Counted from the stretch's first letter, positions 11,675 through 59,697 are shown. The stretch is 64,000 bases of DNA from an uncultured delta proteobacterium (GCA_963848295.1 CAWKDB010000002.1:640001-704000), one strand, 5' to 3'. Made by a program: numbers and translations. Notes: generated by a model not told the origin, from the sequence alone.

Positions 11675-11784
11675 CTGCCGTCTGTCCCCCGAGATCGTTC
11701 CATCGCAGCTGCGTGCTGATCGCCGTCGGCAACACAGGTAACTTCCGTGCCAGTGTCACAGCGCTCGTGTAACTATCTCCGGGG

Positions 11785-23757: not shown

Positions 23758-23878
23758 CCGAGCCTTATATCCCGCGGGGCGATTGGTTCGGTGGCGCAAG
23801 TGCGATGGCCTCCGGAGCGGGTACTGCTGCTCCTCCCGCCCTCGAATGCGAGCTCGGCCCGTCGCGTGCATCGCATAG

Positions 23879-31996: not shown

Positions 31997-32457
31997 GCGG
32001 CACCTCCCAGCGCGCCTTGACGCCATGCCATGAGGTGTTCTTCGAGAACGATCTGCGCCTGGACATGATCGTCGAGGCGCGCGAGCTCGAGATACAGCGC
32101 GCGCTCGGTCGGGTCCGCGCCGGCGCGGGCCTGGTACTCGGTGCCCGCGACGGACCGAATGTGATCGATCAGCGCGATGACCGCGAGATGGTCCGCGTGC
32201 ATCCCATCGCGGATGCGCGTCGTGACCGAGGCCGCGGCCCGATGCGCGAGGAGCGCCTCCTCGCGGTCGAGGTGGCCGAGCAGAAGGGGTTGAAGCTCGA
32301 CGATCGAGCGCGCGAGCTCGCGGGTGGTGTGATCGCCACGACGGCGTGCAGCCGCGATCGCCATCGGCACGACGAACGGCAGGCGCGCCCACACGTAGTC
32401 GTGATGGTTCGCGACCGCATCGTCGAGCAACGTCGGCGGCGCGACCACGGCGCTCAT
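31993..32457 (-). CDS. Hemerythrin-domain protein, Ric-like without the N-terminal ScdA domain
   Basis: NHHDY...LP, HLDREE, MHADH and LYLELARL...QIVLEE; ATGA overlap with ric. Confidence 0.75.
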   Translation of the reverse strand: MSAVVAPPTLLDDAVANHHDYVWARLPFVVPMAIAAARRRGDHTTRELARSIVELQPLLLGHLDREEALLAHRAAASVTTRIRDGMHADHLAVIALIDHIRSVAGTEYQARAGADPTERALYLELARLDDHVQAQIVLEEHLMAWRQGALGGAA

Positions 32458-33125
32458 ACGGTCCCGCGGGTAGCGCGCGAGAACAGGATGTTGTTCTCGA
32501 GATGGATGTGCTGCATCAGCTCGGACTCGACGGTCTCGAGGCCGTGGTAGAGCGCCGTCCAGGTCGCGCACGCGTGCGCCGGCAGCCGCAGGTCATCCGT
32601 GAGTTCGCGGATCTTCACGAGCTGTTCGCGATGCGAGTCGTGCTCGCCTTCCATCACCCGGACCGGCATATAGACCGCCTCCCCGCGCTCACCGCGGCGG
32701 ATCATCGGGAACAGGATCTTCTCCTCCTTGCCCATGTGGCTCTGCATCTCGGCGAAGAACTCGGTCAGCACGTCCGCGAGTCCCGATGGAACGCCCGGCT
32801 TGGTCGCGTGGACTCGCTCCACCTTGCGTGCCGCTTCGATCAGCGGAGGCAGGTCGCGGCGGAGGCCGGCGTGGTAGTGACCCTCGATGTGATCGGCGAG
32901 CTCGGTCTGCGACCGGCTCTCCCAACGCGTGGCTGAGTCGCCTCGCGTGGCCTCCTGCTCGAGCTCGGCCGCGATCTCCGCCGGATTCAGGCCGGCGCGC
33001 TCGCATGCCTCCGCCAGCGTGCGGCGGCCACCGCAACAGAAGTCGAGGCGGTGTCGCAGGAAGACGCGAGTCGCCGACGGATTCGCGGCTGCAAGCTCTC
33101 CGAGGGGGGTTGTCATCGGCTGCAT
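32454..33125 (-). CDS. ytfE: Iron-sulfur cluster repair di-iron protein Ric/YtfE
   Basis: LDFCCGG, HYH, HMGKEEKILFP, MEGEHD, ACATW and HIHLENNILF. Confidence 0.95.
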   Translation of the reverse strand: MQPMTTPLGELAAANPSATRVFLRHRLDFCCGGRRTLAEACERAGLNPAEIAAELEQEATRGDSATRWESRSQTELADHIEGHYHAGLRRDLPPLIEAARKVERVHATKPGVPSGLADVLTEFFAEMQSHMGKEEKILFPMIRRGERGEAVYMPVRVMEGEHDSHREQLVKIRELTDDLRLPAHACATWTALYHGLETVESELMQHIHLENNILFSRATRGTV

Positions 33126-33239: not shown

Positions 33240-34795
<1,556 letters not shown>

Positions 34796-39013: not shown

Positions 39014-40198
39014 TCACTTCTTCCGATGGCCGACCTTCGTGCCGGCCGCCTTGGGCTTCGCAGCACGGCGCGTCTCGATGGCGTGGATCGTCTTCTCGAT
39101 CTCCGCGACCAGGACTGGCTCCTTCGGCAACACGGTGCGGTACTCCGCGGCCAGCACTTTGTTCGGCAGGTTCTCGAGCGTGTAGTGCGCGACAGCGCTG
39201 TCCCTCTCGGCGCACAGGATCAGCCCGACCGGTGGGTTCTCGCCCTCGACCATCCAGTGCTCCCGCGCGTAGTTCAGGTAGAGGTGCATCTGGCCGGCGT
39301 CCGCGTGCGTGAGCTTGTCGAGCTTCAGGTCGATGATGACGAGGCAGCGAAGGCGCCGGTGGAAGAACAGCAGATCGATCCGGTACCACGCGTCGCCGAC
39401 ACGCAGCCGTCGCTGGCGCCCCACGAACGTGAAGTCGCCGCCGAGCTCGAGGAGGAATGACTCCAGCTTGGCGATCAGCGCGGACTCGAGGTCGTTCTCG
39501 GAGTACTCGTCCTTGAGGTTCAAGAACTCGAAGAAGAACGGATCCTTGATCTCCTCCTCGGCAGTTATCACGTCATCGGGCATCTGCTCCTGGCCCTTGC
39601 GCAGCATCGCTGCCTTGTTCTTCGAGAGCGCGGTGCGCTCGTAGAACTGGCTGCCGATCTGCCGGTCGAGCTGGCGGACGGTCCAGCCGCCGCGTAGCGC
39701 CTCGGCTTCGTAGAACCGCTGCGCCTCGGGGTTTCGAACCGAGAGCAGACGCACGTAACACGACCAGGGCAGCGGGAAGTGTCCCGCAACGTGGGCCAGC
39801 TCGTTCAGGCCGGCGAATTTTGCAGACACCGTCTGCAATTTCTGGAGTGCCGGCTCGGACCGCGATTCTGCAGACGCTGTCTGCAAAGTCTCGTCTCGAT
39901 GCGCGAGGTAGAAGGCGCGCATGTTGAACACGTTCCGCTGACCGAATCCGCGGCCAAACCGGGACGCGAGGTCCACGGCGAGGCGAGCGACCAGCACGTC
40001 GCCGTAGTCGGCGCGCGCCTTGCCATGCTGCTCCTCCTCGACGATGCGTCGCCCGACCGCCCAGTAGGTCATCGTGATGACGGCATTCGACGTACGAACG
40101 ACCGCGCGCCGGCCGGCATCGATCAACGCGACGACGTCCGCGAGCATCGCATCGTAGCCCGGCGCGACTCTCACGAGACTGGTCTTCTTGCGGGTCAC
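39014..40198 (-). CDS. DUF1016 / YhcG PDDEXK nuclease-domain protein
   Basis: YWAVGRRIVEEEQ.G..RADYG, LPWS.Y, KDPFFFEFL, ELGGDFTFVGRQ, IDLLFFHR, IIDLK and GQMHLY. Confidence 0.92.
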   Translation of the reverse strand: MTRKKTSLVRVAPGYDAMLADVVALIDAGRRAVVRTSNAVITMTYWAVGRRIVEEEQHGKARADYGDVLVARLAVDLASRFGRGFGQRNVFNMRAFYLAHRDETLQTASAESRSEPALQKLQTVSAKFAGLNELAHVAGHFPLPWSCYVRLLSVRNPEAQRFYEAEALRGGWTVRQLDRQIGSQFYERTALSKNKAAMLRKGQEQMPDDVITAEEEIKDPFFFEFLNLKDEYSENDLESALIAKLESFLLELGGDFTFVGRQRRLRVGDAWYRIDLLFFHRRLRCLVIIDLKLDKLTHADAGQMHLYLNYAREHWMVEGENPPVGLILCAERDSAVAHYTLENLPNKVLAAEYRTVLPKEPVLVAEIEKTIHAIETRRAAKPKAAGTKVGHRKK

Positions 40199-40293
40199 GA
40201 CGCCTCCGGCAATTGCGCAAGCGGCGCGTGCGCGATTGGACGTCGAGCCAGGGTGCGCGTCGACTTGCTTGTCCTCTTTCGAGTTGTCGCCAT

Positions 40294-41070
40294 CTAGCTC
40301 GCCTCCTCGCCCAAGCGCACGAGCACTTCCCAGCGCAGGCCGCGAGGGTCGAAGCCGTACGCGGTCACACGGTACTCGCCTGCCCCGACGCGCGCCACGA
40401 GGTCGGCGAGCGCGACCGAACCCGACACATTGAAGCCGCCCAGCTCGGTGAGGTTGCGATACTCGACGAAGCCGTTCGCGTTGTTCTCGTCGGGGATCAT
40501 GAAGTCGCCCTGCATGCGCGCGACGCTGAGACGCGTCGACTGCTTCTCCGGCAACGACATGAGCAGCTGGGACAGTTGTACGGGCGTGACGCGCCGGACG
40601 ACATCCCGAGGGTCGTGGAGCGGCGGTAGCGCGGGCTCGGGACGCTGCAGCTCGCCCGACCACAGGCCGACCAGCCACGTGTGGTAGAGGTCGCGGACGT
40701 CTTCCGGCGGTACGCGCAGCGCGATCACGATCTCGGCAAGCGAGTGGCGCTGCTCGAGACGCTCGAACACGAGCGCCGCGAGCTCGCCCTTCGAGAGCTG
40801 CGCGGCGTTCACCACGGCTTGCTGCGCGTTCCGCGGCGACCGGTGCTCCGCTACCAGCTCCTTCGCAAGCCGCTCGACATCGGACGCCTTGAAGCGGCGC
40901 ACGCTGTTCGCGTCGATCGTCGGGTGCAGACGCGTGCCTTCGAAGCGGCGCACGGTCGAGATGCTGACGTCTAGGCGCTTGGCAACGTCATCGCGGGTCA
41001 ATGCTGCCAAAGACGGCCCGTCGTCGCCCTGTTTTGCGTCTAAACGCTTGGCTTTCTCGCGCTTCGGCAC
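40294..41070 (-). CDS. MerR-like HTH protein, putative excisionase/directionality factor with C-terminal extension
   Basis: LTRDDVAKRLDVSISTVRRFE...RRFKASDVE winged-helix motif; located next to attR. Confidence 0.65.
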   Translation of the reverse strand: MPKREKAKRLDAKQGDDGPSLAALTRDDVAKRLDVSISTVRRFEGTRLHPTIDANSVRRFKASDVERLAKELVAEHRSPRNAQQAVVNAAQLSKGELAALVFERLEQRHSLAEIVIALRVPPEDVRDLYHTWLVGLWSGELQRPEPALPPLHDPRDVVRRVTPVQLSQLLMSLPEKQSTRLSVARMQGDFMIPDENNANGFVEYRNLTELGGFNVSGSVALADLVARVGAGEYRVTAYGFDPRGLRWEVLVRLGEEAS

Positions 41071-47878: not shown

Positions 47879-48922
47879 TCAGTGGCCGTCATCCGCCTCG
47901 AGAGCGACCTTGGCGCGAAACGAGCGGAACAGGTACGTGAAGTAGCCGAGCGCGAGCAGGATCGCGGGAATCCACCACACGAGTCCGATCGCGAGCCCGG
48001 CGCGGTCGTTCGCGGTATTAGGCACGTCGAGGCTGAACGACGGGTCGATGGACGACCGCAAGATCACCGGATAGAGCGCGCCCGCCGTCATGCCGAGGAG
48101 CGCCGCGATCACGAGCGACGAGGCCAGGAAGCCAGCAAGCTCGCGTTCACGCGCGAGCGCAACGAACACGCCGATCCACGCGGCGACGGCAGCAAGAGGC
48201 AGGAGCCACAGCAGGGGGCGATCGGCAAGGTTCGCCAGTAGCGTCGGGTTCACGAATGCCGTCTCGACCGTGACGAGGATCGCGAGGACGAGCGCGACGA
48301 TCCACGCCCACCGGGCGACGCGCGCCGACCGGGCGTTGACATCGCCCGCGGTCTTCCACTGCAGGAACATAGCGCCGTGGGCCGCGAGCAACGCGAGCGC
48401 GAACAAGCCGACCGACAGCGTGTACCAGTCGATCGCACCGAGCTCGCCACCGAGGCCGAAGTTCGTGAACAGCGGAGCCGCGAAGTAGCCGCTGGCATCG
48501 ATCGGGACGCCGCGCAGGACGTTGCCAAGCGCGACGCCGAGCACGAGTGCGAGCACCGCCGACGACAACGCGAAGACCGCGTCGAAGAACTGCCGCCACA
48601 GCGGGTTCGCCTGGTGCGAGCGGAGCTCGATCGAGATGCCGCGCAAGATGAGCAGCCACAGGACCAGCATGAGCGGCAGGTAGAAGCCGCTGAACGCGAC
48701 CGCGTACACGCGCGGGAACGCGAACACGAGCAACCCGCCGGCCGCGAGTAGCCAGACCTCGTTGCCATTCCACACCGGGCCGATCGCCGCCAGCACCGTC
48801 CGGCGGTCGTCGTCGGAGCGCGCGACGAACAGGTGAAGGGCACCGGCTCCGAGGTCGAAGCCGTCGAGCACGACATACACGATCAACATGAATCCGAGCA
48901 GCACGAACCAGGTGGTCGCCAT
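47879..48922 (-). CDS. cydB: Cytochrome bd oxidase subunit II
   Basis: YVVLDGFDLG, IGPVWNGNEVWL and AFP..Y...FSGFY. Confidence 0.95.
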   Translation of the reverse strand: MATTWFVLLGFMLIVYVVLDGFDLGAGALHLFVARSDDDRRTVLAAIGPVWNGNEVWLLAAGGLLVFAFPRVYAVAFSGFYLPLMLVLWLLILRGISIELRSHQANPLWRQFFDAVFALSSAVLALVLGVALGNVLRGVPIDASGYFAAPLFTNFGLGGELGAIDWYTLSVGLFALALLAAHGAMFLQWKTAGDVNARSARVARWAWIVALVLAILVTVETAFVNPTLLANLADRPLLWLLPLAAVAAWIGVFVALARERELAGFLASSLVIAALLGMTAGALYPVILRSSIDPSFSLDVPNTANDRAGLAIGLVWWIPAILLALGYFTYLFRSFRAKVALEADDGH

Positions 48923-48930
48923 ATCGCTCC

Positions 48931-50262
48931 TCAGCTCTCCGGCTGACCGGGGGTCGGGCCGCGCGCGATCTGGCGGCCGACGAGATAGACGAACAACAGG
49001 CCGATCACGAGGTAGAGCCCGAGGAACCCGAGCGTCGAGAACGCGACGTCACCTGCCCCGACGCGCGGCGACGACGCTTGTGCCGTGCGTTGCAGCCCGT
49101 AGACCGCCCACGGCTGCCGGCCGAGCTCGGCGGTCATCCAGCCGAACGCCGTCGCGATGTACGGGAATGGAACCGCGAGCATCAGGATCCAGCGTAGCGG
49201 CCGCGAGCGGTACAGCGTCTTGCGCCACAGCCCGATCGCCGCGATGCCCATGACGAGGATGAGCAACGTCCCGAGCCCGACCATGATGTGATAGGCGAAG
49301 TACAGGAGCTCGACGTTATCGGGCCACTGATCCTTCGGGATGTCGTTCAGACCTTTGACCTCCGCGCCGAACGACCCGTACGCGAGGAAGCTGAGCGCGC
49401 GGGGGACGACGATCGGATTCTCGAGCCGGCCCTCGGCGACGTTCGGCTGGCCGATGATCGCCAGCTCGGCCTCCGATCCGGTCTCGAACTTTCCCTCCAT
49501 CGCCGCCAGCGCCGCGGGCTGGTACTCCGCGACGAGCTTCCCGCTGCGGTCGCCGGTCGGGAACAGCTGGACGAGCGACGCCACGAGGCCGGCGATCACG
49601 CCGAGCTTGAGACAGCGCTTCGCCGACTCCGCGTGTTTGCCCACGAGCGACCAGTACGCGCCGACGGCGGCGACCACGAACGAGCCGGTGATGACGGCCG
49701 CGCACATGTTGTGGGCGTACTCCCAGAGTGCCCAGCGATTGAACATGAACGCGGTGACATCGACGAGGTGCAGGTTGCCGTCAGCGCCGACGGCAAAACC
49801 CTCCGGGTGTTGCATGAAGGCGTTGGTGGTGATGATGAAGTATCCGGACGCCCACGATCCGACGAACAGCATGATCGCCGCGATGAGGTGGGCGCGCGGG
49901 CCGAGCTTCTTCTCGCCGTACAAGAAGACGCCGAGGAACGCGGACTCGGCGATGAATGCGAACATGCCCTCCATCGCGAGCGTCATTCCGATCACGCCGC
50001 CCGAGTAGCTCGAGAATCGTGCCCAGTTCGTGCCGAACTGGAACTCGAGCGGGATCCCGGTCACGACACCGACCGCAAAGTTGATCGCGAAGATGCGAGC
50101 CCAGAACCGGGCCACGTCATCCCATCGCGGGTCGTTACGTCTGATCGCGAGGATCTTGCTGACGAGGATGAGGAACGCGAGACCCATCGTCAGCTGCGGG
50201 AACAGGTAGTGGTAGGTGACGGTGAAGCCGAACTGAAACCGACTCCACGTGACCGCGTCCAT
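48931..50262 (-). CDS. cydA: Cytochrome bd oxidase subunit I (short Q-loop)
   Basis: YHYLF, GVVTG..LEFQFGTNW, NAFMQHP, HIMVGLG and AELGRQPW. Confidence 0.95.
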   Translation of the reverse strand: MDAVTWSRFQFGFTVTYHYLFPQLTMGLAFLILVSKILAIRRNDPRWDDVARFWARIFAINFAVGVVTGIPLEFQFGTNWARFSSYSGGVIGMTLAMEGMFAFIAESAFLGVFLYGEKKLGPRAHLIAAIMLFVGSWASGYFIITTNAFMQHPEGFAVGADGNLHLVDVTAFMFNRWALWEYAHNMCAAVITGSFVVAAVGAYWSLVGKHAESAKRCLKLGVIAGLVASLVQLFPTGDRSGKLVAEYQPAALAAMEGKFETGSEAELAIIGQPNVAEGRLENPIVVPRALSFLAYGSFGAEVKGLNDIPKDQWPDNVELLYFAYHIMVGLGTLLILVMGIAAIGLWRKTLYRSRPLRWILMLAVPFPYIATAFGWMTAELGRQPWAVYGLQRTAQASSPRVGAGDVAFSTLGFLGLYLVIGLLFVYLVGRQIARGPTPGQPES

Positions 50263-50310
50263 GGGGTGACTGTGCTCCTCTTCGAGTCCGCAACAAGAGT
50301 GCGCGCGACC

Positions 50311-50694
50311 TCAAATCCGGTCGAGCACGCGACCGAGCCGCTCCCGAACCTCGGCCGCGATCGCGCCGAGTCGCGGGTCCTGCGACGCCATGGTCTGCGC
50401 TGGATCGATCGCCACGACGGTCGCCCCGCCGCCGTCGCGCTCGTACACGATGACGTTGCACGGGAGCATCACGCCGACCTCGAGCATGATGCCGAGCGCC
50501 TTGTGGGCGAGCGCCGGGTTGCACGCGCCGAGGATCTTGTAGCGCCGGAAATCGACGTCGAGCTTCTGCTTGAGCGTCGCCGCGACATCGATCTCGGTCA
50601 GCACGCCGAAGCCTTCCGTCTTGAGGGCCTCGGGCACGCGAACGAGTGCCTCGTCGTAGCTGATCGCGAGCTCTTTGCGAATTCCTGGCGTCAT
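50311..50694 (-). CDS. DUF302 family protein
   Basis: GFGVLTEID..ATLK.KL, YKILGACNP and MLPCNVIV. Confidence 0.92.
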   Translation of the reverse strand: MTPGIRKELAISYDEALVRVPEALKTEGFGVLTEIDVAATLKQKLDVDFRRYKILGACNPALAHKALGIMLEVGVMLPCNVIVYERDGGGATVVAIDPAQTMASQDPRLGAIAAEVRERLGRVLDRI

Positions 50695-50732
50695 GTCGGT
50701 GAGAGCGGACCACGCCCCCAAGGGTCCCGCAA

Positions 50733-50924
50733 TCACTTGCCGAAGATCCGTCGAAGTGCTCCTCCGAGCCCGGGGCTCGCTGTCTGGGATCCGGCGGTGG
50801 TCGAGGCGTCTCGACAGGTACAGCGCGATTCCTTGGGCACGTGGCCGAGGACCTGCTCGACGTGGGCCCCGCACCCGGCCCAGGTTGGCTTGTGGCACTT
50901 GTTGCATTGCACGACACGACACAT
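50733..50924 (-). CDS. Small Cys-rich protein (63 aa)
   Basis: MCRVVQCNKCHKPTWAGCGAHVEQVL...RCTC; AAGGAG RBS. Confidence 0.8.
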   Translation of the reverse strand: MCRVVQCNKCHKPTWAGCGAHVEQVLGHVPKESRCTCRDASTTAGSQTASPGLGGALRRIFGK

Positions 50925-50945
50925 GTGGATGCTCCTTCTCTCGTA

Positions 50946-50973
50946 GGAGCCATCCACGGCACCGAGGGTTCGC
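50946..50973 (-). promoter_or_regulatory. ECF promoter motif A
   Basis: GCGAACCC-N14-GGCTCC. A weaker copy, CGGGACCC-N14-CGCTCT, lies at 50702-50729 before DUF302. Confidence 0.75.
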
Positions 50974-51006
50974 ACAAACGACCGCGGCGGGTAGACTGCG
51001 ACGCAG

Positions 51007-51813
51007 ATGGAACGCTCCGACGCAGATCTCGTGACGGCCGCCCGCGGCGGAGACCGTGCCGCGGTCGAGGAGCTGCTCGCTCGCTACGAGCCGAACATCT
51101 ATCGATTCGGCCTACGCATGTGCGGCAACGAGGAGGCCGCGCGCGAGGTGCTCCAGGAGACGCTACTCGCGGTCTTCCGGTATCTCCCGGGCTTTCGCGG
51201 CGATGCCGCGCTGTCGACGTGGCTGTATCAGATCGCGCGGAGCTTCTGCATCAAGGAGCGCCGCGGCGAGCACCCGACCCGCTCGCTCGACGACGCCGGC
51301 GCACCCCAGCTCGTCGATCCGGCGCCCCAGCCCGACGCGCGCGCGCATGCCCGCGAGATCGGCGAGGCCCTGTCGCGCGCGATCGCAGTCCTCCCGCCCG
51401 AGCAGCGCGAGGTGCTGATCCTCCGCGACGTCGAGGGCCTCAGCGCCGAGGAAGCCGCCCGGGTCGTCGGCATCGAGGTCGGGGCGCTCAAGAGCCGGTT
51501 GCACCGGGCTCGCATGGCGCTGCGTAGCGAGCTCGCGGGCATCCTCGGGACGAACGACAACCCAGAACCGTGTCCCGAGCTGGCGCAGGAGCTCGCGGCG
51601 TATGTCGGCGCCGAGATCGATCAGGCGACGTGCGTGCAGATCGAGAAGCACCTCGCGACCTGTGCGCGGTGCGCCGGCGCGTGCGACGCGCTCAAACGGA
51701 CGGTCTCGCTGTGTCGGCGGCTGCCCGGAGATGTCGTGCCCGCCGCGGTGCGAACGGCGGTCCGCGATGCGATCATGGCCGCGATCCCGGCGTCAGCAAG
51801 CCTCGACCGCTGA
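51007..51813 (+). CDS. ECF sigma factor fused to a C-terminal zinc-finger (ZAS, HxxxCxxC) domain
   Basis: Region 2 (LQET..., LSTWLYQIA) and region 4 (LRDVEGLS..E.A, KSRLHRAR), then PCPEL...IEKHLATCARC. Confidence 0.9.
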   Translation: MERSDADLVTAARGGDRAAVEELLARYEPNIYRFGLRMCGNEEAAREVLQETLLAVFRYLPGFRGDAALSTWLYQIARSFCIKERRGEHPTRSLDDAGAPQLVDPAPQPDARAHAREIGEALSRAIAVLPPEQREVLILRDVEGLSAEEAARVVGIEVGALKSRLHRARMALRSELAGILGTNDNPEPCPELAQELAAYVGAEIDQATCVQIEKHLATCARCAGACDALKRTVSLCRRLPGDVVPAAVRTAVRDAIMAAIPASASLDR

Positions 51814-51843
51814 ATCGTTCGGCGCCGGCAGGGCCTCGCCATG

Positions 51844-52443
51844 TCACCCGCGACGAACGCCCACGAGCTGCACCGTGGCGCTCGGGCCGTCGTGGAAGCG
51901 TCCCTCGTGGATCTCGCGGTTCGCGTCACGCGCCACGACGAGCTCGAGCGGGCTCAGCTGCTCGCGCAGCTCGGCGAGCGTGCTGAGCAGGCTCAGCTCC
52001 TTCGGGCCGCCGGTGCCGAGTGCGAGCTGCTCCGGCCGATAGGTCTCGAGGACGAGGCAACCGGCGGCGCGCAACGCATGCGGGATCTGGGCGTGGATTC
52101 GGTGGCGCACCGCCAGCGGCACGTGCGCGAAGATCTCGACGATGCCGCTCCAGCGGTCGATCCCGAGATCGAACGTCGCGAGATCGGCCTGGATGACCTC
52201 GATCGTGACGTCGTGAGCTCGCGCCAATCGCTCGGCCTTGCGCAGGCCTTCGATCGACAGGTCGATCGCGGTGACCTGATGACCGAGGCCGGCGAGGAAC
52301 ACCGCATTGCGCCCCTCGCCCTCGGCCAGGCACAGCACCGGCCCGGGCGGAATCCGGTACGCCTCGGCGCGCAGAAAGTCGTTGGGCTCGACGCCGTACG
52401 CGTACTCGTCGGAGCCGTATCGTTCATCCCAGAAGTTCGTCAT
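51844..52443 (-). CDS. Class I SAM methyltransferase (TehB-like)
   Basis: FWDERY...YAYG.EPNDFL, LAEGEGRNAVFLA, EIFAH, TGGP and EG.FH.G. Confidence 0.88.
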   Translation of the reverse strand: MTNFWDERYGSDEYAYGVEPNDFLRAEAYRIPPGPVLCLAEGEGRNAVFLAGLGHQVTAIDLSIEGLRKAERLARAHDVTIEVIQADLATFDLGIDRWSGIVEIFAHVPLAVRHRIHAQIPHALRAAGCLVLETYRPEQLALGTGGPKELSLLSTLAELREQLSPLELVVARDANREIHEGRFHDGPSATVQLVGVRRG

Positions 52444-52500
52444 CAAGCCTCGAGCTCGGGTGGTGCGTGCCAGCATCATGCCGGGTCCAAGCGTCGGGTG

Positions 52501-52566
52501 AGAGCCACCGTGCGCGGAAACGGTTCGCGCTCATCGAGGCGAATCCTTTTCTTGTCGCGCGGCTCT
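52501..52566. promoter_or_regulatory. Back-to-back pair of ECF motif A promoters
   Basis: Minus GCGAACCG-N14-GGCTCT (52501-52528) and plus GCGAATCC-N14-GGCTCT (52539-52566). Confidence 0.8.
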
Positions 52567-52574
52567 CGACCGAT

Positions 52575-53474
52575 ATGTCCACGCGTCCCCCGCAGGTCGA
52601 GCACTTCTACGACCTCGTGACATCTACCCTCACCTACCTGGTGTTCGATCCGACGACCCGGGATGCCGTCGTGATCGACCCGGTGATGGACTTCGATGCG
52701 GCGAGCGGCAAGACGTCGACGGCCTCGACCGACCGAGTCGCGCGCGCGATCGCGGAGCACGGCCTGACGCTCCACTACGTCCTCGAGACGCATCCGCATG
52801 CCGATCATCTGTCCGGCTCGCAACACCTCAAGCGACTGCTCGGCGCCAGGGTCGCGATCGGCGAGCGCATCACGGAGGTCCAGGCGACGTTCCAGCCGAT
52901 CTTCGATCTCCCGGCGGGGTTCGCGCTCGATGGCTCGCAGTTCGATCGCCTGCTCCGCGACGGCGAGACGCTGCACGCCGGGTCACTCGCGATCGACGTG
53001 ATCGCGACGCCCGGCCACACGCCCGCTTGCGTCTCGTACGCGATCGGCGACGCGGTGTTCACCGGCGACGCGCTGTTCGTCGAGGACTCCGGGACCGGCC
53101 GGTGCGACTTCCCGCGCGGTGACGCCGACGTGCTCTACCACTCGGTCCACGACCGGTTGTACGCGCTGCCCGGCGAGACCCGGGTGTTCGTCGGGCACGA
53201 CTACCAGCCCGGCGGGCGCGCGCTCGCGTACGAGACCACGATCGAGCGCGAGCGGCAGCACAACATCCAGCTGACCGCGTCGACCACGGCGCCAGAGTTC
53301 GTGGCCTTCCGGACGGCGCGCGATCGCACACTCGGGGCGCCGAAGCTCCTCTTGCCGAGCATCCAGGTCAACGTCGATGCCGGTCGCCTGCCGGCTCCGG
53401 ACCCGCACGGCCGGCGGTTCCTGCGACTGCCCGTCAACCCCGGCGCCGCCACACTCGACGATGGCTCGACATGA
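52575..53474 (+). CDS. MBL-fold persulfide (sulfur) dioxygenase, Blh/ETHE1-like
   Basis: [49 protein letters not shown] and QVNVDAG. Confidence 0.9.
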
Positions 53475-54415
53475 CCCGCAACACCGGGTTCTGGATCTTC
53501 GTCGCGATCATCGGCACCGCGCTGGTCGTATTCGGCGCGCCGAGCTGGCTCGCGCTCGGCGCGGGGCTGGTGGTCGCCGTGGCGTCGGGCAAGGCACCTC
53601 CGGCCGCGGTCAGAAAGCTCACCGGCCGCACCTTGCAACTCGGCGTCGTCGCGCTCGGCGCGGGCATGAACCTCGAGGTGGTCTGGCGGATCGGCTCGAG
53701 CGGCGCGCTCATCACGGCGATCAGCCTCAGCGCCGCGCTGGCACTGGGCTTCGCACTCGGCCGCTGGCTCCGGGTCGGCGGCGATACGCCGTTGCTCGTC
53801 TCGGTCGGCACCGCGGTCTGCGGTGGCAGCGCCATCGCCGCGGTGTCGAGCGTGATCAAGCCCAAGGAGCACGAGATCTCGGTCGCGCTCGCCGTCGTGT
53901 TCATCCTGAACGCCGTCGGGCTCGTGCTGTTCCCGGTGCTGGGGCACGCCTTCGGACTCTCGCAGCCCGTGTTCGGCCGCTGGGCAGCGCTCGCGATCCA
54001 CGACACGAGCTCGGTCGTCGGCGCCGGGATGGCGTACGGCCCGGTCGCGCTCGGCATCGCCACGACGACCAAGCTCGCGCGCGCTCTCTGGATCGTCCCG
54101 CTCACGCTCGCGATCGCGATCGGCCGCCAGCGCGGCTCCGGCGCGAGCCTCCGCGACGTGAGGTGGCCGTGGTTCATCCTCGCATTCGTCGTGGTCGCCG
54201 CGCTGTTCACGTGGATCCCGGCACTCGCCGCGGTCTCGCATCCGATCGTGGTGATCGGGCAGCGCGCGCTCGTGCTCGCGTTGTTCCTGATCGGGCTCTC
54301 GCTGTCGCGCAGCGCGATGTCGAGCGTTGGTGCTCGGCCACTGCTCCTCGGCGTGATCTTGTGGATCGCGGTGGCGGCGGTGTCGCTGCCGCTCGCGATG
54401 ATGGCGCCGGGATAG
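53471..54415 (+). CDS. YeiH / putative sulfate exporter family
   Basis: GTAVCGGSAIAAV, AIHDTSSVVGA, KLARALWI and PWFI; ATGA-coupled to the dioxygenase. Confidence 0.9.
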   Translation: MTRNTGFWIFVAIIGTALVVFGAPSWLALGAGLVVAVASGKAPPAAVRKLTGRTLQLGVVALGAGMNLEVVWRIGSSGALITAISLSAALALGFALGRWLRVGGDTPLLVSVGTAVCGGSAIAAVSSVIKPKEHEISVALAVVFILNAVGLVLFPVLGHAFGLSQPVFGRWAALAIHDTSSVVGAGMAYGPVALGIATTTKLARALWIVPLTLAIAIGRQRGSGASLRDVRWPWFILAFVVVAALFTWIPALAAVSHPIVVIGQRALVLALFLIGLSLSRSAMSSVGARPLLLGVILWIAVAAVSLPLAMMAPG

Positions 54416-54425
54416 CGGTGCGAGG

Positions 54426-55043
54426 TCAGGCGGGACGCGCGGTGCCCGCGAACGTGTAGCTCAACCAGCGCGCACCGTCGGTGTAGTCGGCATGCAGGTC
54501 GTCGGAGCGATAGCCCGCGTCGCGCAGGATCCCGGCAATGTCACGATCGAGGTGACAGCCACCACCGACGCGCCGCCACACCGGCGTGAGCCAGCGTTGC
54601 CAGCGCCGAGTCGCGGCATCGCGCGCGAGCCCGTGCTCGACAAGCACGAGCTCGCCGCCGGGGCGCAGCACGCGGCGAAGCTCGGCGAGAGCGCGCGCCG
54701 GGTCATCGAGGCTACACAGCGAGTACGTGATCACCGCCGAGTCGAACGCCCGATCTGGGAACGGGAGGTTCTCGGCGTAGCCGCGGATCAGCTCGACCTG
54801 CACCGGCGCCGCCGAAGCGCGACTCGCGGCACGGGCGAGGAGTGGCGCCGATGGATCGAGGCCCGTCACCTTCGCGACCGTCGCGGCGTCGTAGAACGCG
54901 AGGTTGAGGCCGGACCCGACCCCGAGCTCGAGCACGTCGCCGTGTGCGCGCGGTACCCAACGCTTGCGCTCGTCGAGGATCGCCGCGCTACGGCACGCCT
55001 TCTCGACGAGGTGGGGCAAGACGTGGTCGGCCCAGAGGCTCAT
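54426..55043 (-). CDS. Class I SAM methyltransferase (METTL7-like)
   Basis: VLELGVGSGLNL, LCS, RRVLRPGG...EHG and GGCHLDR. Confidence 0.88.
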   Translation of the reverse strand: MSLWADHVLPHLVEKACRSAAILDERKRWVPRAHGDVLELGVGSGLNLAFYDAATVAKVTGLDPSAPLLARAASRASAAPVQVELIRGYAENLPFPDRAFDSAVITYSLCSLDDPARALAELRRVLRPGGELVLVEHGLARDAATRRWQRWLTPVWRRVGGGCHLDRDIAGILRDAGYRSDDLHADYTDGARWLSYTFAGTARPA

Positions 55044-55064
55044 GGCCCGGCTGCCTCCGCATGC

Positions 55065-55451
55065 TCAATCACGCGACATCTCGCTGTCACGGTGGGCGAC
55101 CGTCTCGGCGACCTCGCGGCGAATCGCGTCCATGTCGAGCGCTTCGACCTGCGTGACCAGCGAATCGATCGTGGAACCAGGGAGCGCACCAGGCCTCGAG
55201 AATACGAGGACTCCATCGCGAAACACCATCAACGTCGGGATCGCTTGGACCCCGAGCTCACCCGCGAGCTGTTGCTCGGTCTCGGTGTCCACCTTCGCGA
55301 ACACGATGGAGGGATTCCGCGCCGCCGCGGCTTCGAACGTGGGTGCGAACGCCCGGCACGGGCCGCACCAGCTCGCCCACAGATCGACCACGACAATGCC
55401 CTGCTCGATCGTGGCCTCGAACGTCTCGGCTGTCAGATTCTTGATCGCCAT
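55065..55451 (-). CDS. trxA: Thioredoxin
   Basis: WASWCGPC, KVDTE and IPTL; AGGAGG RBS. Confidence 0.92.
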   Translation of the reverse strand: MAIKNLTAETFEATIEQGIVVVDLWASWCGPCRAFAPTFEAAAARNPSIVFAKVDTETEQQLAGELGVQAIPTLMVFRDGVLVFSRPGALPGSTIDSLVTQVEALDMDAIRREVAETVAHRDSEMSRD

Positions 55452-55470
55452 GTGCGACCTCCTGTCCTTC

Positions 55471-55498
55471 AGAGCCGTCGCTGACCGGAAGGATTCGC
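55471..55498 (-). promoter_or_regulatory. ECF promoter motif A before thioredoxin
   Basis: GCGAATCC-N14-GGCTCT. Confidence 0.8.
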
Positions 55499-55499
55499 G

Positions 55500-55735
55500 A
55501 GTGTGGCGACGCCCGGATGAGACAGCGCCGCGGCGGCGCGCGCCTCCTGCAGGAACCGGTCGACGGCGAGCTGGACGGCCGGCCCGCGCAGACTGGCGAC
55601 GTGCTCGGGCTTGATGGCGACCTCGCGTCGGAGGTCGAGATCCTCGGCGCGATACACCGCGCCCATCCCGCCCTCGCCGACCTTGGTCACGATGCGATAC
55701 GGAAAGCTCGCCGTCGGCTCGCTGGGTGGGAACAT
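55500..55735 (-). pseudogene. Truncated Ser/Thr kinase (subdomains I-IV only)
   Basis: VGEGGMGAVYRAED..LRREVAIK...RFLQEARAAAALSHPG; breaks at the trx promoter. Confidence 0.8.
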
Positions 55736-55744
55736 CGGTAGGCC

Positions 55745-55876
55745 TCAGATCACGTGCAGGCCCCAATGCATCGCGGCGAACCCGACGAACATGACCCCCA
55801 TCAGGATCATGAGCTTGTCGTGGATACACGGACCCTGTTTCGCCTTGCAGCCGTCGATCGGGCACATCTTCGCCAT
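55745..55876 (-). CDS. 43-aa Cys/His peptide with C-terminal TM helix
   Basis: MAKMCPIDGCKAKQGPCIHDKLMILMGVMFVGFAAMHWGLHVI; GAGGAG RBS and its own motif-B promoter. Confidence 0.75.
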   Translation of the reverse strand: MAKMCPIDGCKAKQGPCIHDKLMILMGVMFVGFAAMHWGLHVI

Positions 55877-55926: not shown

Positions 55927-55951
55927 GTCTTCCGAGACGGCACAGCGTTAC
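55927..55951 (-). promoter_or_regulatory. ECF promoter motif B
   Basis: GTAAC-N16-AGAC overlapping the TAA of DUF2063. Confidence 0.75.
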
Positions 55952-56682
55952 AGGCCATCGGAGGCGACGAGGATCTCCGCACGCAGCCACCGCAGCAGGA
56001 GCTCGATGGCGCGGACAGGAGCATCGTCGCCGTGGCTCGTCGCGAGCCGCTCGCAGACCTCGGCGAACCGGATCCCGGTCACGAGGTGAGGTGCGAGCTC
56101 GGCCTCGTCGCGTTCGAGCGTGCGATGAAACACCGCGACGCCGCGACGCCAGACCAGCACGGTCCGCGCGGCTCGCGCCGGCACCAGGCCGGTCGCGCCG
56201 TCTTCGATCGCGCTCCACGTATCGTCGACGGTCCACGCGAGCGAGACGAGGACACTCGCGGGGACCAGGCGCAGCTCGAGGTCGGGCAACGCGAGATCGA
56301 GCGCCGCGACCTCGTCCTGGGCCAACGGCCGTGCCTCCGGCCCGTCGAAGACCTCGATGCGCGCGCGCTCCAGCTCGGCGAGCTCGGCCAGCCACGGCGT
56401 CGCCGTGCGCGCCAGGAACGCGGGCAGGTCGAGCCCCGCGTCGCGCAGCGTGTACGAGCGCGGTGGGTGGAGCTCGAGGTACCGCGCGACCAAGTCCGCG
56501 AACGCGTCGTCGCCGAGCATGGCGCGGACCTTGGGGTAGTCGGCCGCGAGCGTGTCGTGCAACCGGCTCGCGTACATCCGGGCATAGATCCAGAGGTCGC
56601 CGGACGCGATGATCGCGTCGGTGTCGCCACCCGTGATCACGCGCGCGTAGAACGTCCGCTGGAGCGCCGCGAGGTCACCCAT
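55948..56682 (-). CDS. DUF2063 (BufC/HvfC-like) MNIO partner protein
   Basis: LQRTF, IYARMY..RL...LAADYP, YLELHPP, ELAELE and VWRR; overlaps the DUF692 end. Confidence 0.88.
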   Translation of the reverse strand: MGDLAALQRTFYARVITGGDTDAIIASGDLWIYARMYASRLHDTLAADYPKVRAMLGDDAFADLVARYLELHPPRSYTLRDAGLDLPAFLARTATPWLAELAELERARIEVFDGPEARPLAQDEVAALDLALPDLELRLVPASVLVSLAWTVDDTWSAIEDGATGLVPARAARTVLVWRRGVAVFHRTLERDEAELAPHLVTGIRFAEVCERLATSHGDDAPVRAIELLLRWLRAEILVASDGL

Positions 56683-57529
56683 ATGCGGGCACCTTCGCCG
56701 CGAACCGAGGCAGGCCGAGCGCGATGCTCCGCGCGTGATCGAGCTCGCCGACCAGCTCGCCGAGCGGTGGGATGTGGTCGTCGCGTTCGATCATCGTCGA
56801 GACCGCGCCGAACCGCGCGACCGCCGCGGCGTACAGGTCCCACACGGCCGCGCAGACCGGCTCGTCATGGGTATCGAGCAAGTGACTGCCGTGATCGCTG
56901 TGCCCGGCGAGGTGTATCTGGCCGACGCGCTCGACCGGGATCGCCGAGAGATAGGCGTGTGCGTCCCAGCCGTGGTTCTGCGAGCTGACATAGACGTTGT
57001 TGACGTCGAGCAAGATCCCGCAGTCCGCGCGGCGCGCGACCTCGGCGAGAAACTCGGCTTCGCCGAGCTCGCTCGCCGCGAACGTGACGTAGCTCGACGG
57101 ATTCTCGAGGAGGATCCGCCGACCGAGGCGATCCTGCACGCGGCCAACGCGGTCGACCACGTGCGCGAGCGCCTCAGCTGTATACGGCAGCGGCCACAGG
57201 TCGTGCGCCGCGTGCCCGCCGACGCCGGACCAGCACAGATGATCCGATACGATCGCCGCCTCGACCTCGGCGACGAGCGCCGCGAGCCGAGCGAGGTACG
57301 CCTCGTCGAGCGGATGGACCGATCCGATCGACAGCGACACGCCGTGGAGCACGATCGGCGCGCGCTCGCGCATCGCGCGCAACACGCGCCGCGGGTTGCC
57401 GCCCGCGACCATGAAGTTCTCGCTGATCACCTCCCACCAGTCGACACCGGCCGCGCCTGCCGAGCCCGCGAGTGCGTCCTGATAGTGCCGCGGCCGGAGC
57501 CCGAGGCCGAAGCCGAGACGCGGCCACAT
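56675..57529 (-). CDS. DUF692 multinuclear non-heme iron oxidative enzyme (MNIO, BufB-like)
   Basis: GLGLRPRH, EVISENF, HGVSLSIG, SDHLCW, LENPSSY, LLDVNN, QIHLAGH, DTH and IERD. Confidence 0.95.
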   Translation of the reverse strand: MWPRLGFGLGLRPRHYQDALAGSAGAAGVDWWEVISENFMVAGGNPRRVLRAMRERAPIVLHGVSLSIGSVHPLDEAYLARLAALVAEVEAAIVSDHLCWSGVGGHAAHDLWPLPYTAEALAHVVDRVGRVQDRLGRRILLENPSSYVTFAASELGEAEFLAEVARRADCGILLDVNNVYVSSQNHGWDAHAYLSAIPVERVGQIHLAGHSDHGSHLLDTHDEPVCAAVWDLYAAAVARFGAVSTMIERDDHIPPLGELVGELDHARSIALGLPRFAAKVPAYG

Positions 57530-57531
57530 GG

Positions 57532-57837
57532 CTACATCTTCTGCGCGACGACGGTCCCGCCCTTGGTCTTGCACTCGTCCTCGGTCGCGGTCTTGACGAA
57601 GCTCTTGCCCTTGCAGCCGTTCTGGCCGGCGCACGCGTTCTGGGCGCTCTTGCAACTACCGTGACCCTTGCAGTCGTTGATGCCGTCGCAGTGGACCATC
57701 GCGGCGGTCTTCTCCGCGGGCTGCATCGCGGCCGGGGCCGGCTTGCTGCTCGTGTCTTCCTTCTTGCTGCATGCCGACGCGAACAAGCTGGCGGCGGCAA
57801 TCGCGATCATCGTTCCGGTGCGGACAGGGTTCTTCAT
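57532..57837 (-). CDS. Bufferin (BufA2)-like RiPP precursor with lipoprotein signal
   Basis: Hydrophobic leader ending FASAC, then CDGINDCKGHGSCK...NACAGQNGCKGK...ECKTKGG; AAGGAG RBS; directly upstream of DUF692. Confidence 0.88.
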   Translation of the reverse strand: MKNPVRTGTMIAIAAASLFASACSKKEDTSSKPAPAAMQPAEKTAAMVHCDGINDCKGHGSCKSAQNACAGQNGCKGKSFVKTATEDECKTKGGTVVAQKM

Positions 57838-57886
57838 CGCATTCTCCTTGGCAGTCGAGGTTTGTTCGACCGCTTCTGCGATGTCT

Positions 57887-57911
57887 GTCTCGCGACGTCG
57901 CCCGACGTTAC
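57887..57911 (-). promoter_or_regulatory. ECF promoter motif B before the precursor
   Basis: GTAAC-N16-AGAC overlapping the anti-sigma TAA. Confidence 0.78.
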
Positions 57912-58177
57912 GTCGGCTCTGGCTTTTTCTTCGCACCGGCGAGCCGCACCTCGTTCCACGCCGCGAATCGCTTGCGCATCTCGTCGCGCACATCGGCGGG
58001 AATCGGCTCGTCGGGCAACCGGCCGAGGCTGCCGATCGTGGCCCTCATCTGCCGCAGGTACGCGCGGCAGTGCTTGCACATGCCGACGTGCATCTGGAAC
58101 CGCATGCGGTCCCGCAGGCTCAGCCGACCCTCGAGATAGTCGGTGATGATCTCGGTGATCTCTTGGCAGCTCAGCAT
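57908..58177 (-). CDS. Soluble zf-HC2 anti-sigma factor
   Basis: LSCQE....TDYLEG.L...HVGMCKHC..Y..Q. Confidence 0.9.
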   Translation of the reverse strand: MLSCQEITEIITDYLEGRLSLRDRMRFQMHVGMCKHCRAYLRQMRATIGSLGRLPDEPIPADVRDEMRKRFAAWNEVRLAGAKKKPEPT

Positions 58178-58803
58178 TCGGTCTTCGCGAAGTGCGCCTC
58201 CAGCCGGGCCCGGAGCCGGGTCCGCGCACGGTGCAGGAGCACCCGCTGGTTGGTCTCGTTGATCTCGAGCGCGTTACAGACTTCTTCTGCGGTCCAGCCG
58301 AGCGTATCGCGAAGGACGATGATCACGCGCTGTCTTTCGGGCAGCTCGCGAAGCTCGACCTCGAGCAGCGTCATCGCCTGCTGGTTGCCGACGAGCTTCT
58401 CCGGAGACTCATCCTCCCACCGGATCGGCGGAGCGCTCCACTTGCCGTTGGCGTTGAACCGCGCCGCATCGACGACGGCGAGCTCGTCGGCGTTCTCGTC
58501 GCCGTCGCCGATCGCCGAGAACGGTGTCATCCGTGCCTCGCGCACGCCCTTGGTCTTGGCGCGGTTCACCAGGATCCCCGAGATCCAGGTTCCGAGTGCG
58601 GAGCGCTCCTCGAACGAGGCGAGGCCGTCGAGCACCGCGACCCAGGTGTCTTGCACGACCTCCTCGGCAGACGCGTCCGTCGACACGAACATGCGCGCGA
58701 GTCGCCTGAGCCGACCATGGTACTTCGCCACGAGCGCGTCGAAGGCATCCGCATCGCCCGCGCGAAGTCGCGCGAGGAGCTGCCTATCCTCAGAGTTCGC
58801 CAT
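58171..58803 (-). CDS. ECF RNA polymerase sigma factor
   Basis: AEEVVQDTW, FEERS...TW, LPERQR, EEVCNALEI and NQRVLLHRAR. Confidence 0.93.
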   Translation of the reverse strand: MANSEDRQLLARLRAGDADAFDALVAKYHGRLRRLARMFVSTDASAEEVVQDTWVAVLDGLASFEERSALGTWISGILVNRAKTKGVREARMTPFSAIGDGDENADELAVVDAARFNANGKWSAPPIRWEDESPEKLVGNQQAMTLLEVELRELPERQRVIIVLRDTLGWTAEEVCNALEINETNQRVLLHRARTRLRARLEAHFAKTEC

Positions 58804-58916
58804 AGCTATCGAGGGCTTCACCCTAGGCGGGTGCACCTGCGCCGTCCAGTCGGGATCCCCTCGGAAGATCGCGCGTAACGAAACCTCGGCCCGCGAGACC
58901 AATCGGATCGAGGCGT

Positions 58917-59384
58917 TCATGCGTGGTCACCAACCACGAGGTGCCGGCGACGCGCCAGCCAGTGATCGACGGACGCAGCACCCGCCCCCGCCAACGCGAG
59001 CCACGTGAACGCGGCCAGATACGCGATCTCGACGGTCCCCGCGAGCTCCGCGATGCCGTGAACCTCGGGGAGCTTCGCGGTCAAGATCGCGACCGCCATC
59101 ACCCCGATCAGGAAGAGCGCGGCGATCCGCGTCCCCAACCCGACGAGCACCGCGAGCCCGCCGAGCAGCTCGACGGTCGAGACGAACACGGCCTGCGCGT
59201 GCGGAGCCGGGATGCCGAGCGAGCCGAAGTATTGCGTGACGTCGTCAAGGCTATGAAGCTTGCCCCAGCCCGAGGCCACGAACACGATCCCGAGGGCCAC
59301 CCGAACGAACAGCGGGCCGAGCCATTCCACCTTGTGCGTGACCGAGAGAGAGCGATCGTACGCGACCTTGAGAGCTCCGAGCAT
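58917..59384 (-). CDS. DoxX family membrane protein (BufD-like)
   Basis: RVALG.VF..SGWGK, F.SLGIP.P, ELLGG...GLGTR and GAG..SVD. Confidence 0.9.
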   Translation of the reverse strand: MLGALKVAYDRSLSVTHKVEWLGPLFVRVALGIVFVASGWGKLHSLDDVTQYFGSLGIPAPHAQAVFVSTVELLGGLAVLVGLGTRIAALFLIGVMAVAILTAKLPEVHGIAELAGTVEIAYLAAFTWLALAGAGAASVDHWLARRRHLVVGDHA

Positions 59385-59392
59385 GACGCCTT

Positions 59393-59417
59393 GTCTGCCG
59401 ACCGGGCGATCTGTTAC
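59393..59417 (-). promoter_or_regulatory. ECF promoter motif B before doxX (leaderless spacing)
   Basis: GTAAC-N16-AGAC, 8 nt before the ATG. Confidence 0.78.
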
Positions 59418-59697
59418 GCGCCATCCGAACCACGCCGCTGAAGCGACGCACCGACCCAGTGGGCCGTCCTTCATCTAGCTAGGGGAGCACCGACGAGCTC
59501 GGGCGCCGACGGTGGCGCGCCGGTCGTCCGAACCGCTAGCCACACGCCGATCAGGGCGGCGATGACCGCGATCCCGCGGCGAGCTTCGATCGCGATCACG
59601 GCAGTGCGACACCAGCGCTCGCCGCCGGTTCCCTCGTGGCAAGCGCCCGCCGGCTTGGCACACTAGGGTGGTCATGAGCGTCGCTTCGGCCGCGTAC

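Follow-up and report, generated by a model that had tools for sequence, protein, structure and literature searches.

In a 64,000-nucleotide stretch of DNA from an uncultured delta proteobacterium (GCA_963848295.1, CAWKDB010000002.1:640001-704000; the whole stretch is called the window here), a 268-aa sigma factor of the extracytoplasmic function (ECF) type, encoded at 51007..51813 (+), ends in a fused zinc-binding anti-sigma (ZAS) domain, and a bipartite motif is repeated in front of the neighbouring genes. The question is whether this motif is the promoter of the fused sigma factor and, if so, what the fused domain responds to. With a probability of about 0.6, we propose that the motif is the sigma's promoter and that the zinc tail locks the sigma until thiol-reactive stress attacks its cysteines.

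The pattern GCGAAYCS-N14-GGCTCY has four exact matches in the window and no others: before the gene of a Cys-rich peptide (50946..50973, -), before methyltransferase 1 (52501..52528, -), back to back with the latter before the persulfide dioxygenase (PDO)-yeiH unit (52539..52566, +), and before the thioredoxin-methyltransferase 2 unit (55471..55498, -). None of 100 shuffles reached four matches (mean 0.01); as the pattern was derived from the same four sites, independent tests weigh more than the shuffles. A two-block matrix built from 51 loci of sigma orthologs, with the window excluded (consensus GAAYCsTTT and GGCTCTCAC), ranked these sites 5, 1, 3 and 2, respectively, in the 7.78-Mb genome, and a matrix trained on just 33 distant loci again gave ranks 1, 2, 3 and 5. 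Thus, the motif that an earlier note had placed before four units is there, exact in each case, and we rejected a chance or post hoc pattern on the grounds of the matrices trained without the window and of the spacer controls given below. The identical spacing claimed in that note holds for the four sites of the window, whereas the family motif is GAAYCsTTT, N15/16, GGCTCTCA, with a spacer of either 15 or 16 nt. A de novo count of gapped words mainly picked up the coding sequence common to the sigma genes and was uninformative.

The weaker copy that had been noticed before the DUF302-cydAB unit is present at 50702..50729 (-; score 11.8), with the ATG 8 nt past the -10 block, a leaderless spacing, but it is not significant alone: it ranks 254 with the 33-locus matrix, and 78 genome sites score as high with the 51-locus one. 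It gains support because DUF302 is the first gene past the motif in 10 of the 99 ortholog hits; expression of DUF302-cydAB by read-through from the Cys-peptide promoter is also possible. No motif was found upstream of the second PDO-rhodanese, the second thioredoxin, the YgaP-like gene or the second YeiH of the genome; the second PDO, fused to rhodanese, lies at G000:C10:805317-806369. Two other high-scoring genome sites (C2:124024 and C1:71665), which stand before a DnaJ/DnaK-like unit or run into a start codon, were not accepted as members. A decayed copy (score 8) occupies 51809-51836 (+), directly past the sigma stop, and the same position in relatives (for example, L003, L005 and L012) has an intact motif that leads a gene.

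Conservation of the motif near sigma orthologs had been set as a test beforehand. In one scan of 80 loci, comprising the 51 with fused orthologs and 29 controls with other ECFs, almost all unfused, the matrix site was present in 41 of the 51 ortholog loci, compared with two control loci. Counted for each spacer from 10 to 22, GAAYC-N-GGCTC was found 61 times with spacer 15 and 47 times with spacer 16 in the ortholog loci, with 2-8 at the other spacers, and 0-4 at every spacer in the control loci. Twenty further loci that had not been used in training, picked from 38 tail-domain matches of the phylum sample, contained the site in 15 cases, mostly before a thioredoxin, DUF302, peptide, OsmC or YgaP-like gene.

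The same tendency was observed for whole genomes. Among 300 other Myxococcota genomes, the strict pattern occurred in 31 of the 38 that have the fused tail (68 hits) and in 29 of the 262 that lack it (35 hits); these counts were tallied by hand from the rows, and the backwards pattern, used as a control, had 25 hits in 301 genomes. When motif-bearing sigma-negative genomes were re-tested, five of ten did hold an ortholog. Within one family, the motif was found in 11 of 13 sigma-positive and in none of 10 sigma-negative genomes; in the window's family, 28 of 80 other genomes match the profile, one of them with a protein that is not an ortholog. Five genomes that encode the sigma away from any cluster of this kind yielded 26 matches versus 3 in the control, and the genes after these sites encode PDO, rhodanese, thioredoxin, MoaA or Tll0287-like proteins in 8 of 24 cases and other products in 16. 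One genus (G078, G093, G148) has an expanded, dispersed set of 6-9 sites, some of them before ArsM-like and thioredoxin genes.

If the motif is a promoter, the distance to the following start codon is informative. Of 111 sites, 99 are followed by an open reading frame (ORF), and the distances are bimodal. The first class (n = 35) begins 8-11 nt past GGCTC and has no Shine-Dalgarno-like sequence, for which there is little room by construction; the second class (n = 31) begins at 19-26 nt and has such a sequence in 30 cases. These distances fit a transcription start approximately 8-10 nt past the second block and many leaderless messages. We are confident, as far as sequence comparison goes, that the motif is a promoter, many of the predicted transcripts being leaderless; its two blocks are likely the -35 and -10 elements read by the fused ECF sigma.

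The sigma gene is never the first one after a site, and at several loci it is the second in a motif-led unit. TAnnnT is found 5-10 nt before the sigma start in 21 of 45 orthologs, and in the window a possible housekeeping-type promoter (50969..50997, +; TTCGCA-N17-TAGACT, 8/12 consensus) precedes the gene, although it is below the threshold of the promoter scan and was not called by it. In sister systems where the sigma and the ZAS domain are split, a variant motif ending in GCATCT was found in 7 of 9 cases, with the pattern relaxed after three of them had been seen. In L054 and L055 it stands immediately upstream of the system's own sigma gene, a case of autoregulation that connects the motif with this clade of sigmas.

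The fused domain (51556..51786, +; PF13490 at cut-off) has the form C189-x25-H215-x3-C219-x2-C222 and three additional cysteines, C209, C226 and C236. All seven of these residues, as well as C39 and C81 in sigma2, are invariant in 240 of the 240 top-scoring homologs; in the locus set C226 is present in 47 of 50. A profile search with the tail hits RsiW, RsrA and 3hug_B (E 0.0004-0.005), and its alignment with RsrA is free of gaps between the first Cys and CxxC, in the C11/H37 spacing of RsrA. In the CHCC type of ZAS a Cys lies 23-26 residues ahead of HxxxCxxC, and this N-terminal Cys is needed for the oxidative release of RsrA (PMC4960319); here H215 lies 26 residues after C189, both being invariant in the 240 homologs. 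The assignment of the tail to the CHCC zinc-binding anti-sigma domains related to RsrA is well supported, and both zinc binding and inhibition of the sigma are predicted from it. The AlphaFold model has confident domains (pLDDT 84), and a fold search returned generic ECF structures only.

In a tree of 111 core sequences, built by a quick search, the fused family forms one clade (75 rows, SH-aLRT 99), and the sister branches in Ignavibacteria, Elusimicrobia, Omnitrophota and Planctomycetia are split sigma and ZAS pairs, with the ZAS gene at +1 in all nine unfused sister loci. The nearest relatives of the window belong to the Kofleriaceae (Myxococcota), with 85-94% identity in the sigma. The earlier note was right about the fusion; as to its statement that there is no separate anti-sigma, a second ECF, which does have a zinc anti-sigma of its own, is encoded at a distance of 2.4-2.7 kb.

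The first genes after the 99 sites encode a Cys peptide (n = 13), rhodanese (n = 13), a YgaP-like protein (n = 12), thioredoxin (n = 12), DUF302 (n = 10), OsmC (n = 8), PDO (n = 5), efflux components (n = 5), TauE (n = 3), YeeE (n = 3), methyltransferase (n = 2) and glutamine amidotransferase (n = 2), with single cases of SQR, SorA-like, DsrE, MoaA, Tll0287-like and a second small peptide, and five others; 27 of the 99 are sulfur-handling. Across the family, thioredoxin, rhodanese, the YgaP-like protein, DUF302, OsmC and the Cys peptide are the constant targets, whereas PDO, TauE, YeeE, SQR, the MddH-like methyltransferase and cydAB are minority recruits. The YgaP of E. coli is linked to the persulfide sensor YgaV. 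The motif-led SQR passes the NCBIfam type III cut-off, DsrE2 is also among the targets, and genes resembling CoA-disulfide reductase occur in trans; an automatic per-locus 'CoADR' count, which rhodanese domains had inflated, was set aside.

As for cytochrome bd, the motif leads PDO-cydA-cydB in a genome of the same genus, and at two Ignavibacteria loci (L057 4076-8275 and L059 2283-6564) the sigma gene is followed by ZAS, a YgaP-like gene, another copy of ZAS and finally cydAB. No strong site was found at the close homologs of cydAB in two further genomes. The possible S-methylation and the sulfide-proof respiration suggested in the earlier note would fit an MddH-like gene and, in one other genome, a motif-driven PDO-cydAB unit; both are minority recruits.

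As the motif precedes thioredoxin, sulfur-detoxification and small genes and travels with the sigma, the sigma likely activates these genes in response to thiol stress or to stress from reactive sulfur. In this lineage a housekeeping promoter would keep the sigma in steady supply, and its control would hence be post-translational. By analogy with RsrA, zinc on C189/H215/C219/C222 would hold the tail against sigma2/sigma4 in cis. Formation of a persulfide or a disulfide would eject the zinc and free the sigma, and the induced thioredoxin would re-reduce the tail and close the loop. We consider this lock, with thiol-triggered zinc release and a thioredoxin reset, fairly probable as an analogy. 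The predicted output would comprise thiol repair (thioredoxin, OsmC), transfer and oxidation of sulfane sulfur (rhodanese, PDO) and sulfite export (YeiH/TauE); in this genome, judging from the gene families, it probably adds S-methylation of sulfide and sulfide-tolerant respiration.

Several observations weigh against this account. The motif counts overstate independence, because the genomes are related. The acidic residues flanking CxxC (E39, E40, L45, E46), which have been linked to the diamide sensitivity of RsrA homologs (PMC3177212), are not conserved in the tail, where positions 217, 218, 223 and 224 are mostly A/E/Q, A/T/R, R/A and G/A. Three orthologs (L132, L192, L193) stop after sigma4, and the sequence next to them encodes no zinc domain; they keep C39 and C81, and two of them have motif-bearing neighbours. 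AlphaFold gives no confident packing of the domains (pTM 0.41). No sulfur-handling gene was found in 28 of the 51 ortholog loci, and a cyd match in just one.

Genes expected in a sulfide response are also seldom reached. In the window's family, the 29 best PDO loci (self excluded) include 15 from sigma-positive genomes, of which 3 have the motif within 1.5 kb of the PDO gene, and 14 from sigma-negative genomes, of which none does; for MddH-like genes the respective counts are 2 of 11 and 0 of 11. Six family PDO loci adjoin a sigma-54 activator, one of them in a sigma-positive genome. Thus, the thiol/persulfide-sensing sigma switch of the earlier note keeps its promoter, its fused zinc domain and its thiol/sulfur-stress gene set, whereas persulfide as the signal is weakened by the minority status of PDO and cydAB and by the tail-less orthologs. 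L192 (G360:C3:6114441-6114971) has three intact sites, one leading PDO-cydA-cydB. In L225, L229, L231, L233, L234 and L239 a Kofleriaceae-family PDO, mostly with rhodanese, lies downstream of a sigma-54 activator, an arrangement that resembles FisR systems.

The same promoter and regulon could be governed in other ways. If the zinc domain were accessory, the sensor would be the C39/C81 pair of sigma2, or the sigma would be released by proteolysis of the tail. The invariance of this pair in 240 of 240 homologs and its retention in the split Ignavibacteria relatives and in all three tail-less orthologs agree with the former, and a review predicts activation by proteolysis for fused ECF270 members (PMC8999054, Table 2). 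Still, the fused majority conserves the seven ligands or cysteines of the tail just as strictly, each of the nine unfused sister sigmas has its ZAS gene at +1, and the tail-less forms may simply be constitutive, so we consider this explanation rather unlikely.

We give still less weight to the possibility that the Cys-rich tail senses a metal (Cu, Zn or Cd), like CorE/CorE2 of Myxococcus xanthus, the thiol genes repairing the metal damage. Genes of RND/MFP/OEP efflux systems are indeed found in 10 of the 51 loci (5 of the 99 first genes) and P-type ATPases in 4, a bufferin cluster adjoins the locus in the window, and MddH has been found next to metal-resistance genes (PMC11445057). However, the tail is an 80-aa ZAS domain and not the ~20-aa Cys-rich tail of CorE, there is no linker CxC, a P-type ATPase is never the first gene after the motif, and over a quarter of the first genes (27 of 99) handle sulfur.

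Vice versa, if the fused sigma were a bystander, the motif would be read by another regulator, for example the bufferin-associated ECF at 58174-58803, which lies together with its ZAS less than 3 kb from the last motif. None of the fetched loci, however, contained a counterpart of this ECF (homolog with >=40% identity), its ZAS or BufB, and the bufferin ECF was on these grounds rejected as the cognate sigma; moreover, the motif follows the fused sigma across families, and the matrix scan detected none in the bufferin cluster. We find this explanation very improbable and retain the fused sigma, locked by its zinc tail, as the preferred reading.

Among the described groups, the family resembles subgroup 2 of ECF270 by its soluble ZAS, which is encoded at +1 in the unfused sister loci and joined to the sigma in the Myxococcota clade, although the match is by description only. 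According to Casas-Pastor et al. 2021 (PMC7826278), ECF270 comprises sigmas of Deltaproteobacteria, Planctomycetes, Ignavibacteriae and Nitrospirae that have a soluble ZAS encoded at +1; in 60% of subgroup 2 the two are fused. The first three taxa were seen here as well, Nitrospirae were absent from the loci returned, and Elusimicrobia and Omnitrophota were also present. The accessible part of that paper reports no conserved context or promoter for ECF270, and the group is listed without experimental data in the corresponding part of a review (PMC8999054), whereas promoter and gene context are defined here for the family. The arrangement, of which the earlier note knew no description, already exists as an architecture in the description of subgroup 2, though without promoter, regulon or function.

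In the CHCC domain, its ligand spacing and a thioredoxin target, the family resembles SigR-RsrA of Streptomyces coelicolor and SigH-RshA (ECF12). It differs in that the ZAS is fused in one ORF, giving one polypeptide, whereas the ECF12 anti-sigma is separate at +1; in the promoter, GAAYC-N15/16-GGCTCTCA rather than GGAAT-N17/18-GTT; in lacking the acidic redox determinants of RsrA and having extra invariant cysteines; and in a small, sulfurtransferase-rich regulon, with a sigma that is usually not directly autoregulated. CstR (CsoR family), SqrR/BigR (ArsR family) and FisR control a gene set of this kind (PMC13467558; PMC9774590), with PDO, SQR, sulfurtransferases, TauE, YeeE/YedE and CoA persulfide reductase-like proteins; such genes make up 27 of the 99 first genes here, but the motif accompanies just 3 of the 15 family PDO genes in sigma-positive genomes. 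Moreover, CstR and SqrR/BigR are DNA-binding repressors and FisR is a sigma-54 activator, whereas here we observe sigma-70 region 2 and 4 domains. A PDO cluster of Streptomyces is run by a CsoR-like repressor (PMC7533328). CorE and CorE2 (ECF238) are likewise one-component ECFs with a Cys-containing C-terminal regulator, but have a short metal-binding tail and a linker CxC instead of an 80-aa ZAS tail without linker cysteines, and the membrane-anchored ZAS fusions of ECF48/52/53 have transmembrane helices and long extensions, neither of which is found in this sigma. In short, the system would work like SigR-RsrA and serve genes like CstR, SqrR and FisR, but it belongs to none of these groups.

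The identities given to the genes of the locus were confirmed by Pfam, NCBIfam and PDB matches, apart from the label of methyltransferase 1. On the minus strand, cydB (cytochrome bd oxidase subunit II, 47879..48922; PF02322, TIGR00203 above cut-off), likely the last gene of the DUF302-cydAB unit, follows cydA (subunit I, 48931..50262; PF01654), the single copy found in the assembly by tblastn, and the DUF302 gene (50311..50694; PF03625), a recurrent regulon member. The 63-aa Cys-rich peptide (50733..50924, -), predicted by translation, has no Pfam family; it is also a recurrent regulon member, with look-alike unnamed clusters. Methyltransferase 1 (51844..52479, -), formerly labelled TehB-like, is a class I S-adenosylmethionine (SAM) methyltransferase, but it is Slr1183-like and matches TehB weakly; homolog starts point to position 52443 as its likely start.

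In the opposite direction, the PDO (52575..53474, +), whose ATG lies 9 nt past GGCTC in leaderless spacing, is of the Blh/SDO type with a metallo-beta-lactamase fold (SDO half of NF040641, 344 bits) and matches PDB 9g8t/4ysk/4efz at 286-292 bits; 4YSK is presumably the Pseudomonas putida enzyme. Its stop is overlapped by the gene of a putative sulfate/sulfite exporter of the YeiH family (53471..54415, +; PF03601, TIGR00698 below cut-off).

Downstream of the thioredoxin gene (55065..55451, -; PF00085, WCGPC) lies methyltransferase 2 (54426..55043, -; PF08241), an MddH-like SAM methyltransferase and candidate H2S/methanethiol S-methyltransferase. It aligns with MddH (PMC11445057) over the full length, with shared Cys positions and, by eye, the EHG and GGCHL motifs; the identity with EF61 MddH is ~41% (~84/206, by eye, Supplementary Table 10 of PMC11445057), compared with the paper's family cut-off of 45%. 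No Sqr was found in the window, as had been noted before, nor in the 85%-complete genome with three queries. An 88-aa fragment (55469-55735, -) that resembles the start of a Ser/Thr kinase ends across the thioredoxin promoter and is probably a remnant.

Beyond it lies the bufferin cluster (55948-59474, -), which includes DoxX, the second ECF sigma, DUF2063 and, above cut-off, BufB, as well as a separate 89-aa zf-HC2 anti-sigma (57911-58177) and a 101-aa Cys-rich precursor (57535-57837). The anti-sigma of this ECF is of the soluble zinc-finger type and not of the membrane NrsF type, which is the usual partner of the bufferin ECF. A 43-aa ORF (55745-55876, -) downstream of the bufferin genes has three Cys, a His, a hydrophobic tail and no Pfam hit. 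Nitric-oxide stress genes, namely a NorB-type reductase, a hemerythrin/ScdA repair protein and a sigma-54 activator, occupy 21475-23871 (-), 32457-33125 (-) and 33815-34792 (+). A phage-type integrase followed by a 966-aa N6 DNA methylase (10559-14682, +) and a YhcG/DUF1016 nuclease (39014-40678, -) suggest mobile DNA.

A bolder version of the account, which we put forward only tentatively and consider doubtful, would add a fourth class to the primary persulfide sensors, namely a one-chain sigma whose zinc-thiolate tail, tuned by the three extra invariant cysteines, is selective for sulfane sulfur. It would switch on a complete sulfide defence, from SQR/PDO oxidation and sulfur transfer to sulfite export, MddH-type methylation to dimethyl sulfide and cytochrome bd, would replace FisR, SqrR and CstR in many myxobacteria, and would expose DUF302, the YgaP-like membrane protein and the Cys-rich peptide as unrecognised sulfur-handling proteins. 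In the reviews covered here, the primary sensors of reactive sulfur come from the CsoR, ArsR and Fis families only, and hence a sigma factor in that role, if true, would be a new regulatory class. Our literature search, which covered few subscription papers and part of the PMC7826278 supplement, found neither this promoter nor a sigma factor described as a persulfide sensor; a prior description is possible.

For a widespread, uncharacterised sigma group of the Myxococcota, the analysis supplies a predicted promoter and regulon and a signal that can be tested. A one-piece switch of 268 aa with a sharp promoter could be used as a thiol or sulfur biosensor, and the natural split and tail-less forms allow the evolution of the fusion to be studied. 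Three small protein families that so far have no function may be assigned one from their place in the regulon.

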